Shown: positions 51,001 to 54,000 of the stretch, piece by piece
Layout of the letters: every line of letters starts with the position of its first letter
Numbering within the stretch: the stretch's first letter is position 1
Origin: Escherichia coli
Lineage (GTDB): Bacteria; Pseudomonadota; Gammaproteobacteria; Enterobacterales; Enterobacteriaceae
Direction: 5' to 3' (one strand)
Length of the DNA stretch: 64,000 nt
Assembly: GCF_030013205.1 (NCBI RefSeq)
Contig: NZ_CP122648.1
Position numbers: made by a program

Positions 51001-54000
51001 GATGACCAGGAAGTCCCGACGGCGTTCGAAAAGCCGGATGTGGGCCGCATGATCACCTCGCTGGTGCTGATTGAAACTATCGCGCTGATTGCTATCTGCC
51101 TGACGGTGGGGAAAATTGTTGCGCAACTTTTGGCTGGCACTGCTTTTGAACTGCCGACCTTCGTCTGTGTACTGTTTGTTGGCGTGATTCTGAGCAACGG
51201 TCTGTCAATGATGGGCTTTTACCGCGTCTTTGAGCGTGCGGTATCCGTGCTGGGTAACGTAAGCCTGTCGTTGTTCCTGGCGATGGCGCTGATGGGGCTG
51301 AAACTGTGGGAGCTGGCTTCGCTGGCGCTGCCGATGCTGGCGATTCTGGTGGTACAGACCATCTTCATGGCGTTGTATGCCATCTTCGTTACCTGGCGCA
51401 TGATGGGCAAAAACTACGATGCGGCGGTGCTGGCTGCGGGTCATTGTGGTTTTGGCCTCGGTGCAACGCCAACGGCAATCGCCAACATGCAGGCGATCAC
51501 TGAACGTTTTGGCCCGTCGCACATGGCGTTCCTGGTAGTGCCGATGGTCGGTGCGTTCTTTATTGATATCGTTAACGCGCTGGTGATTAAGCTGTATTTG
51601 ATGTTGCCGATTTTTGCCGGTTAAAAATGAAAAAGCGTCGGAAGGAACCGGAAACGCTACGTGAACACTGTCGCCATATTTTTGGTGACGAGCCGCCAGT
51701 GCTCTGTGTATGGGAAACGGAATTTGATTACGCAGATGCCGAACTCAAGGCGCTGGCGGCTAAAGAGTGGCAACAGATAGGCGAATGGGATTTGAGTGCT
51801 TACTATGTACTCAATCTCGTTTATAACGAACCGATGCAAATAGAGCTGTTTCGCTATCTGTTTCCGCTATGCCTGGCGCAATGGCATGAAACCGTTTTAG
51901 CTGGCGGTTATGGTGATCACTTCGAAGAATCCTTAATGAAGGCATTGCGTCGGCCCTATCTCTGGCAGGAGATGATGAATGCTTCCCAACGCCAGCAGGT
52001 ACGGCAATTTTTACTGGAAACCGCGTTGCAGCGTATGGATAACGAGCGTGGTTTCAATAATGTTCTTTGCTGGCTGGCGGTGTTCAATACTCTGGGCGGG
52101 GCCGCGCCGTTAATTCATTCTCTCTGGTCAAGCTGGTGGGTGCTGGATACGCCGGGAAAAGCGGTGTGTGCTATTCAGTATGCCGCGCATCTAATTTATC
52201 CCATAGAAGCCAATCCGTTATGGTCGCAAGAATGGTTAGGCTGGGGGCATCCATTAGGTCATAAAGATGGCTGGTCCTCTGAGAATCGCGCTTTTCTTCG
52301 CCAAATGTTAACACCTGAAATGATTGTGGCTGGCGTACAGGCAGCGGCTGAAATTCTGCGTGGTGAACCGGAAGGCGCAATGGCGGCGCGAATTGCGCAG
52401 GATGCGTATGAGGCAGTGGATATCATCACTATCCAGATTGAAGATTTACTGCGTGACTTGTCTTGTGATGAGTCTGGTCATGCGTTGGAGTAGCGTTCTG
52501 TTTCTGGCATCCAGCGTTCTATCAGGGCTTTTGCCTGTTGTGGGTAACGTTCGTGAATATGTCGCGCCAGGCGCTGAACTTCCGGGATCATCGCCTGGTC
52601 GCGCAGTAAATCCGCCACTTTAAACTCAGCATTACCCGTCTGACGCGTACCTAACAGTTCACCCGGTCCGCGAATCTCTAAGTCTTTCTGTGCAATCACA
52701 AAACCGTCGTTGCTGTCGCGCAGCACTTGCAGCCGAATTTGCGCGGTTTTGGAGAGCGGCGTTTTGTAGAGCAGCACGCAGTGAGAAGCCACCGCACCAC
52801 GACCTACACGCCCGCGAAGCTGGTGTAACTGCGCCAGACCCAGACGCTCAGGGTTTTCGATAATCATCAGACTGGCGTTAGGCACATCAACACCGACTTC
52901 AATAACGGTAGTGGCAACCAGCAGGTGTAGTTCACCTTGTTTAAACGACGCCATCACCGCCTGTTTCTCGGCAGGTTTCATCCGCCCGTGTACCAGGCCG
53001 ACGTTCAGTTCCGGCAACGCCAGTTTCAACTCTTCCCAGGTAGCTTCCGCCGCCTGCGCTTCCAGTAACTCTGACTCTTCAATCAACGTACAAACCCAGT
53101 ACGCCTGACAACCTCCAGTCATGCAGGCGTGGCGCACGCGGTCAATGATGTCGGTACGGCGAGTATCAGGAATAGCGACCGTAGTCACTGGCGTGCGGCC
53201 TGGCGGCAGTTCATCAATGACCGAGGTGTCGAGATCAGCATACGCAGTCATCGCCAGCGTGCGGGGGATCGGCGTGGCGGTCATGATCAACTGATGCGGA
53301 TGGAAGCCTTGCTGCTGGCCTTTCTCCCACAATGCCAGACGCTGATGCACGCCAAAGCGATGCTGTTCGTCGATAATCACCAGCGCCAGGCCGTTAAACT
53401 GCACCTGTTCCTGGAAGATGGCGTGTGTTCCGACAATCATCTGCACCTGACCGCTGGCGATGGCTTCCTGCTGTGCCAGCCGCGCTTTACCTTTCTGCTT
53501 ACCGGCGAGCCAGCCCACTTCGATACCGAGCGGTGCAAACCAGTTACGGAAGTTATTGGCGTGCTGTTCGGCGAGTAATTCGGTTGGTGCCATCAATGCC
53601 ACCTGTTTGCCGTGGGCAATCGCACGCAGCGCGGCGAGGGCAGCGACCAGCGTTTTACCGGAACCTACATCGCCCTGTACCAGGCGCATCATCGGCGCAT
53701 CCAGCGCCATATCGCGCTCGATCTCCGCCACCACGCGTGCCTGTGCGCCCGTTGGCTTGAACGGTAAGGCTGCGAGGAGTTTATTTTTCAGCGCGTCATT
53801 GGCGCTAAGCGGCTGGGCATGGAAACGTTGTGCACCAGCGCGTAACGCCAACATGCTGAGGTTGTGCGCAAGCAGTTCTTCCAGAATCAGACGGCGTTGT
53901 GCTGGATGCTGCCCGGTTTCGAGATCGCTAAGCTGTAGCGTCGGCGGCGGGCGGTGCAAAGTGCGCAACGCTTCCGGTAGCGTCATCATTCCTTGTGACA

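Follow-up and report, generated by a model that had tools for sequence, protein, structure and literature searches.

A gltS-cotranscribed accessory gene of Escherichia coli belongs to an uncharacterized acidic protein family found beside RNA-repair genes in Planctomycetota

Introduction

What does the open reading frame (ORF) that separates gltS from recG in some Escherichia coli strains encode, and what might its product do? The question was raised by a 64,000-nucleotide stretch of an E. coli chromosome (contig NZ_CP122648.1, referred to as the window), in which an 867-nucleotide ORF, ybl159, follows the sodium/glutamate symporter gene gltS and runs into the end of the convergent recG gene. 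The ORF is no discovery as a gene, being already annotated in thousands of genomes; its family has no Pfam entry, neither a solved structure nor a recognizable structural relative, and no published function. The analysis described here indicates that ybl159 is a genuine gene cotranscribed with gltS, and that its most likely role, to which we assign a rough probability of 0.4, would be that of a non-catalytic accessory factor of the RNA-damage response that binds a protein partner. We infer the functional assignment as a whole, and likewise the translational coupling to gltS and the ancestral presence of the gene followed by loss.

Results

Coding status of the ORF

The ORF extends from an ATG to a TAG codon and encodes 288 amino acids, 13 of which (4.5%) are tryptophan. 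The expected number of open frames of such length arising by chance is ∼0.05 in the whole window. The gene and its downstream neighbor are placed as follows.

51627-52493, plus strand: ybl159 (ECB_03510-type gene), encoding a 288-amino-acid, acidic, tryptophan-rich, predicted all-helical protein of an uncharacterized family
52478-54559, minus strand: recG, convergent neighbor of ybl159 (RefSeq annotation of the identical locus)
52478-52493, no strand assigned: 16-nucleotide overlap of the ORF end (..HALE and stop) with the last five recG codons and stop (RYSNA and stop)

A prior inspection of the DNA by itself, here called the sequence-only reading, had described a tryptophan-rich ORF of 867 nucleotides and 288 amino acids that overlaps the 3′ end of recG by 16 nucleotides, and the coordinates confirm this description. 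It had also allowed for the ORF being interrupted in other genomes; in the eight E. coli copies sampled, all eight coding sequences (CDSs) were intact at 867 nucleotides, with five protein alleles and no pseudogene flags.

Comparison of the window with O157:H7 gave a ratio of nonsynonymous to synonymous divergence (dN/dS) of 0.25 for the ORF, and the ratio ranged from 0.07 to 0.25 over the comparisons made. The dN value was ∼5 times that of the neighboring genes. In the comparison with the Salmonella orthologue, dN was 0.22 and synonymous sites were saturated. ybl159 is a genuine gene that codes for a protein; it is intact, and purifying selection acts on it. Its dS between the window and O157:H7 (0.061) matched those of gltS (0.057) and xanP (0.069), and because it equals that of the flanks, the gene has moved along with them inside E. 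coli. The GC content of the ORF is 50.2%, and at third codon positions (GC3) it is 49.5% versus 58-65% in the flanking genes. The ordinary E. coli-like composition noted before thus held overall, but the codon bias is weaker than in the neighbors. The low GC3 fits a weakly expressed gene.

Transcription with gltS

Upstream of the ORF, two features define its relation to gltS.

50419-51624, plus strand: gltS, sodium/glutamate symporter gene, upstream in the same transcription unit (401-amino-acid ORF; RefSeq annotation of the identical locus)
51625-51626, plus strand: 2-nucleotide spacer AA, flanked by the TAA of gltS and the ATG of the ORF, without a Shine-Dalgarno sequence upstream (sequence ...GCCGGTTAAAAATG)

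The adjacency to gltS had been recognized in the sequence-only reading with a distance of 3 nucleotides; the measured spacer is 2 nucleotides. Co-expression with gltS, also proposed there, is supported by published RNA sequencing (RNA-seq) of REL606-derived clones, in which gltS and ECB_03510, described as “immediately downstream of gltS,” were strongly down-regulated together (bioRxiv 10.1101/2020.01.22.915975). This report, where the product is a protein of unknown function, was the sole mention of ECB_03510 found in the literature (bioRxiv 10.1101/2020.01.22.915975). Neither a sigma-70-like promoter site nor a convincing terminator was found in the interval 50100-53200. In the copies of E. 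coli and Salmonella a Shine-Dalgarno sequence is lacking, and the start codon lies 2 and 1 nucleotides, respectively, past the gltS stop codon. By comparison, three orthologues without gltS upstream (loci L009, L010, and L012) carry GGGAGG 5-7 nucleotides before the start. In E. coli and Salmonella the gene is transcribed with gltS. Because of the 2-nucleotide gap, the missing Shine-Dalgarno and promoter-like sites, and the GGGAGG of orthologues that do not lie behind gltS, translation most likely proceeds by termination-reinitiation coupling to gltS. The locus would illustrate how a Shine-Dalgarno sequence is given up once a gene has come to lie directly behind another.

The tight coupling in E. 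coli and Salmonella and the co-regulation in RNA-seq would also fit an accessory factor of glutamate uptake or metabolism that acts with GltS. However, gltS stands alone in two thirds of E. coli genomes, K-12 among them, and the orthologues of Intestinirhabdus, Enterobacter sp. kpr-6, and Superficieibacter lie next to recG without gltS upstream. Furthermore, no distant homologue adjoins a glutamate transporter, and the protein is devoid of transmembrane and signal segments and of enzyme-like motifs. Because the adjacency is limited to two genera and most E. coli strains have gltS alone, we regard a role with GltS as improbable. A link to glutamate transport was rejected, gltS adjacency being confined to Escherichia and Salmonella.

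Protein family and predicted structure

Searches with the protein against Pfam, NCBIfam, PHROGs, and PADLOC gave no match, in line with the earlier failure to recognize a domain; the best NCBIfam hit was a chance match of 13.5 bits versus a cut-off of 817. A profile search of 1.84 billion cluster representatives detected 442 relatives at E ≤ 0.001, so that the family comprises at least 442 clusters at 50% identity. The listed non-fragment relatives are ∼270-370 amino acids long, each a single-domain match without fusions, and the family is uniformly acidic with a median isoelectric point (pI) of ∼5.0. Among 76 diverse relatives, none matched any Pfam family, including immunity families and the HEAT and Arm repeat profiles. 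A profile search against the sequences of the PDB yielded only chance matches (E ≥ 0.3).

The E. coli protein was missing from the first list of homologues because it was clustered under a GltS representative. In the 90%-identity protein collection, Ybl159 and GltS sequences share one cluster of 9280 members represented by GltS. The mixed cluster may result from chimeric or fused gene calls across the 2-nucleotide gap.

The AlphaFold2 (AF2) model had a mean predicted local distance difference test (pLDDT) score of 89 and showed an all-helical solenoid of 15 helices; its confidence implies a well-defined fold. No significant fold match was found for the predicted structure. In a comparison with α-solenoids of the HEAT, ARM, TOG, and MIF4G types, no sequence repeats were detected with the Pfam HEAT and Arm profiles.

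Conservation was assessed in an alignment A1 and a broad alignment A3; a subset, A4, was used for the metagenome scan. The following motifs stand out, all within ybl159.

51708-51728, plus strand: VWETEFD, residues 28-34, family consensus [VI]W[EQ]xQFD; A1 shows no variation at V28, W29, E30, F33, and D34, and the motif is found again among 76 diverse members
51846-51884, plus strand: LFRYLFPLCLAQW, residues 74-86, part of the long helix 72-92; no other stretch of the family is as conserved, and in A1 the run is invariant
52125-52139, plus strand: WSSWW, residues 167-171, followed by the conserved G177; W167, W170, W171, and G177 do not vary in A1, and in A3 the conservation of W170 and G177 is 90% or more
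52272-52286, plus strand: WSSEN, residues 216-220, conforming to the WxxEN consensus of the family; W216 and N220 never vary in A1 and reach at least 90% conservation in A3

Over the 76 members, P80 is invariant and L83 and W86 are nearly so. The family motifs can be written as [VI]W[EQ]xQFD, LQP[DE]LFxYLFPxCLxxW, LWxxWWxxxxxGxA, and WxxENxxFL. The positions conserved to at least 90% family-wide, the start methionine aside, are Y, Q, P, L, W, W, G, W, and N. This residue set is not catalytic-looking. Because no conserved residues of a catalytic type were found, the protein is read as a binding protein rather than an enzyme, and we suggest with modest confidence that the family is a protein-binding module.

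Gene neighborhoods of distant homologues

Outside the enteric bacteria the family occurs mainly in Planctomycetota, where, in genomes and metagenome contigs, the family gene (X in the gene orders below) lies inside RNA-repair cassettes or beside enzymes that process ADP-ribose or consume NAD. The gene order is Hen1-X-Pnkp in L021 and L038 and Hen1-X in L043. In L020 it is RlaP-X-Pnkp with overlapping reading frames, and L019 holds an RlaP-RlaP-X-Pnkp fragment. In L016, a metagenome-assembled genome (MAG) of Kuenenia, X precedes two RlaP genes and an ADP-ribosylglycohydrolase gene. In L033 the order is X-RlaP-R2K ATP-grasp-RlaP-Pnkp, and in L028 X is followed by an RNA ligase gene, with two RlaP genes on the opposite strand. 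When 186 neighboring ORFs were compared all against all, only RlaP and Pnkp formed recurrent families of some size; the four remaining groups were pairs. RlaP enzymes add nucleotides at damaged RNA 3′ ends and have been proposed as antidotes to RNA-trimming ribotoxins (PMC12776372), and Pnkp/Hen1 mends tRNA that was cut by ribotoxins (introduction of PMC12776372).

Two observations concern the cassettes themselves. The R2K-clade ATP-grasp gene (PF18299/PF14243) of the metagenomic cassette at L033 6904-9971 is unusual in an RNA-repair cassette. L019 and L020 come from one MAG (Planctomycetales HKST-UBA38), whose two family copies are 86% identical and each lie beside RlaP and Pnkp, which suggests duplicated RNA-repair cassettes in this bin.

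Further homologues have neighbors of other kinds. A NADAR gene overlaps the start of X in L032, and a related upstream neighbor was found by BLAST in L042. A gene for a TIR-domain protein lies directly upstream of X in L044; a PADLOC search of the unannotated neighbors added only the TIR-type match. In L031 a Schlafen-AlbA_2 protein is encoded convergently with X. The beta-proteobacterial X in Cupriavidus campinensis (L014 6830-8520) and in L050 is followed by small ORFs on the same strand, including DUF6869 and DUF6714, with McrBC adjoining; the Cupriavidus array looks like a defense or immunity island.

In a rough neighbor-joining tree, the RNA-repair-linked members were found on several branches of a Planctomycetota-type clade. 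The proteobacterial members, including the E. coli protein, formed a separate clade and are solitary, with 36-42% identity to the RNA-repair-linked members. The latter share 36-40% identity with the E. coli protein and 47-68% among themselves, save one pair at 86%.

The main rival explanation takes up these contexts in another way: an orphan immunity protein or inhibitor, in which the acidic helical protein would bind a basic nuclease or an ADP-ribosylating toxin directly and so neutralize it, and would be kept without the toxin as protection against competitors. Like the immunity proteins CdiI, Imm, and SUKH, the family is acidic and single-domain, consistently so and without fusions, and it is often solitary or in variable or defense regions. 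Its distribution is patchy across Proteobacteria and Planctomycetota, with two copies in one MAG, and its presence varies among E. coli strains. The neighborhoods are of a conflict type (RNA repair, NADAR, ARH, TIR, Schlafen-AlbA_2, and the Cupriavidus McrBC island). However, in contrast to polymorphic-toxin immunity, no toxin domain was found among the neighbors scanned in ∼40 family loci, and no toxin gene adjoined in the loci read. Besides the lack of a Pfam immunity match in all 76 members, the length of 290 amino acids exceeds that of most immunity proteins. Vertical inheritance with a steady clock in Enterobacteriaceae is unlike the behavior of a rapidly exchanged cassette, and the gene was found neither on E. 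coli plasmids nor in viral contigs. We consider an orphan immunity protein unlikely, although it is the strongest of the competing explanations.

Occurrence and alleles in E. coli

The ORF was found in 1917 of 5426 complete E. coli genomes (35%), always on the chromosome and nearly always in a single copy; no copy was found on plasmids among these genomes. Of the matching records, 1916 are at least 95% identical to the ORF, and 1911 genomes match it at ≥95% nucleotide identity over ≥80% of its length. Carriers include O157:H7, O111:H8, REL606, and BL21. The CDS is 100% identical in CFSAN018748 (protein WP_063086436.1) and ∼97.5% identical at the nucleotide level in O157:H7 and many other strains. 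RefSeq lists the product as WP_063086436.1, WP_000747329.1, and alleles, the same protein bears the UniRef name Ybl159 (J7QXD5_ECOLX), and the gene is ECB_03510 in E. coli B REL606. The ECB_03510 and Ybl159 records describe the same gene as the window ORF without any difference and carry no function. The sequence-only reading had considered that the ORF might turn out to be a well-known annotated gene; it is annotated in all E. coli carriers, but as “hypothetical protein” (RefSeq). In every annotated E. coli copy inspected, the gene is flanked by gltS and recG.

For a survey of the site, a probe built from both flanks was run on the complete E. coli genomes. Three alleles exist between gltS and recG: the gene in ∼35%, a K-12-type spacer in 1869 genomes (≥80% coverage), and a 33-nucleotide spacer in the rest. 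K-12 MG1655 has no gene in the interval and a 168-nucleotide spacer instead, which bears out the tentative statement of the sequence-only reading that K-12 lacks a gene there. The 33-nucleotide spacer (L008 700-733) consists of a GC-rich hairpin followed by a T run, i.e. a terminator. In the K-12 spacer (L003 3293-3460) this hairpin is interrupted by ∼135 inserted nucleotides that resemble a repetitive extragenic palindromic (REP) element. The variable segment reaches into recG. The RecG tail RYSNA with its stop is encoded by CGT TAC TCG AAT GCG TAA in K-12 and the short-spacer alleles versus CGC TAC TCC AAC GCA TGA in the window, and since the gene-less alleles use other codons and another stop, the boundary of the segment lies inside recG. 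The short spacer begins with ATGAAGCGGCGG, which is similar to the beginning of the ORF, ATGAAAAAGCGTCGG; the likeness hints that the short spacer may be a deletion remnant. The site is a tidy case of three co-existing alleles: gene, bare terminator, and REP-split terminator.

These alleles bear on a further explanation, in which the ORF is a slowly decaying remnant whose protein is of little consequence and the segment counts mainly as DNA or RNA: the unterminated gltS transcript would continue into recG as antisense RNA and modulate the spoT-trmH-recG operon at its end. Consistent with this, no convincing terminator follows the ORF, which overlaps recG by 16 nucleotides, and the gene-less alleles carry a clean GC-rich hairpin terminator at this place. 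The weak codon bias (GC3 0.495) and the ∼5-fold higher dN relative to neighboring genes point in the same direction. However, the gene is intact in all of the sampled genomes (8/8) and in five other Enterobacteriaceae at 49-71% identity, dN/dS is 0.07-0.25, the confident AF2 model implies a well-defined fold, and full-length homologues occur in other phyla. Given the intactness, the purifying selection, and the confident fold, a decaying remnant is very improbable, and we give this explanation the least credence of those considered.

Orthologues and history of the locus

Some Salmonella enterica have an orthologue, as do Intestinirhabdus alba, Enterobacter sp. kpr-6, and two species of Superficieibacter. 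Identity over the full length is 70% for the Salmonella homologue and 38% for that of a Zoogloeaceae MAG. Every enterobacterial orthologue is convergent with the 3′ end of recG, with an overlap of 16 nucleotides, gaps of 2-12 nucleotides, or, in one Superficieibacter, a gap of ∼350 nucleotides. recG is the only neighbor kept across all enterobacterial genera that have the gene. The upstream neighbor varies: gltS occupies this place only in Escherichia and Salmonella, and xanP lies there directly in two other genera.

The ratio of divergence of the ORF protein to that of RecG was 4.5-6.7 for all 15 pairs of six taxa. Such constancy is expected under vertical co-inheritance with a faster clock, the ORF evolving at ∼5 times the pace of RecG. 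Because this ratio is steady, ybl159 appears to be an old gene at the 3′ end of recG that was lost repeatedly, rather than a recent insertion. A pattern-based scan, restricted to representatives, gave no match in other Escherichia species or in Salmonella LT2, as would fit frequent loss. A recent horizontal acquisition was rejected, since within E. coli the dS is no different from that of the flanks and between genera the ORF/RecG divergence ratio stays constant. No relative turned up in a scan of viral contigs, leaving a phage origin unsupported. Of the suggestion that ybl159 is a lineage-specific accessory gene, the accessory status stood (35% of genomes); a recent lineage-specific acquisition did not, as the gene occurs in several genera and its divergence tracks that of recG.

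Other features of the window

The window matches strain CFSAN018748, and according to the annotation of the identical record it contains an ETT2-type island remnant at ∼11577-31060. This remnant holds the 11-kb inverse autotransporter gene iatC, eilA, and type III secretion system translocon and chaperone genes; its SipD-like needle-tip gene is interrupted by IS2. Genes for a RelE/ParE toxin and a helix-turn-helix antitoxin lie at ∼9298-9958, between yicN and nepI. The tRNA-Sec gene selC (∼35541-35635) is followed only by a rhuM fragment, so that this strain has no large island at selC. An accessory sugar cluster is located between yicI and yicH (∼39933-46876) and encodes a BglG-type antiterminator, fructose-type phosphotransferase system components IIA, IIB, and IIC, two aldolases, a ROK protein, and a D-lyxose/D-mannose isomerase.

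Discussion

The gene neighborhoods of the distant homologues, the sole lead to a function, hint at RNA-damage response as the context of the family. Its product would be a cytoplasmic, acidic, single-domain α-solenoid that binds a partner and is itself non-catalytic; candidate partners are an enzyme of RNA repair and the toxin that does the damage. The enterobacterial copy would be a stand-alone descendant, detached from its RNA-repair partners and made from the gltS transcript, and its loss in E. coli would leave the 33-nucleotide terminator hairpin or, in K-12, the hairpin split by the REP insertion. In a broader scope, the family might supply accessory proteins of conflict systems related to NAD and ADP-ribose.

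Operons of Pnkp/Hen1, RtcB, and RlaP reportedly follow a “syntax” with a slot for a non-catalytic component, e.g. Archease with RtcB, or Rot/TROVE, as Burroughs and Aravind are said to have described in 2016. The family resembles such scaffold or cofactor proteins in that homologues occupy a fixed place in Hen1-Pnkp and RlaP-Pnkp operons and lack conserved residues of a catalytic type. In fold and profile searches, however, no sequence or fold relation to Archease, Ro, or SPFH was found. The E. coli gene also differs from the RNA-repair systems in adjoining no pnkp, hen1, rlaP, or RNA ligase gene, whereas eight homologues do (L016, L019, L020, L021, L028, L033, L038, and L043). From this comparison, the family would most likely be an accessory or scaffold protein of RNA-repair and conflict modules. 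Possibly the 2016 survey of RNA repair already remarked on the place of the family in Pnkp/Hen1/RlaP cassettes. As for anti-phage defense genes, the protein has no PADLOC match. Among the homologues, one is a neighbor of McrBC and another of a TIR protein; in E. coli the locus is a housekeeping neighborhood.

Several points weigh against a role in RNA-damage response. The proteobacterial clade as a whole is solitary and found in unrelated neighborhoods, and linkage to RNA repair is seen only in a distant clade, whose linked members may form a single functional subclade. Among the non-enteric loci, about half have no informative neighbor, and no RNA-repair gene was found in the 64-kb window by tblastn (E > 0.04) or in the annotation. 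Finally, the acidic pI only weakly favors protein binding over RNA binding.

A more specific form of the proposed role in RNA-damage response is that the family is an unrecognized non-catalytic subunit of Pnkp/Hen1/RlaP modules and that the stand-alone enterobacterial copy protects translation RNAs from ribotoxins. The protection might be achieved by binding of the toxin or by recruitment of host repair enzymes such as RtcB/RtcA. We hold this form to be doubtful, with a considerably lower probability than the general role.

The context in Planctomycetota provides a hypothesis that is cheap to test, and K-12, naturally free of the gene, is a ready genetic background. If the RNA-repair hypothesis is wrong, ybl159 would be an ordinary uncharacterized accessory gene. 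If protection of translation RNAs proves true, it would be a strain-variable determinant of tolerance to colicins, contact-dependent growth inhibition (CDI), or phage nucleases.

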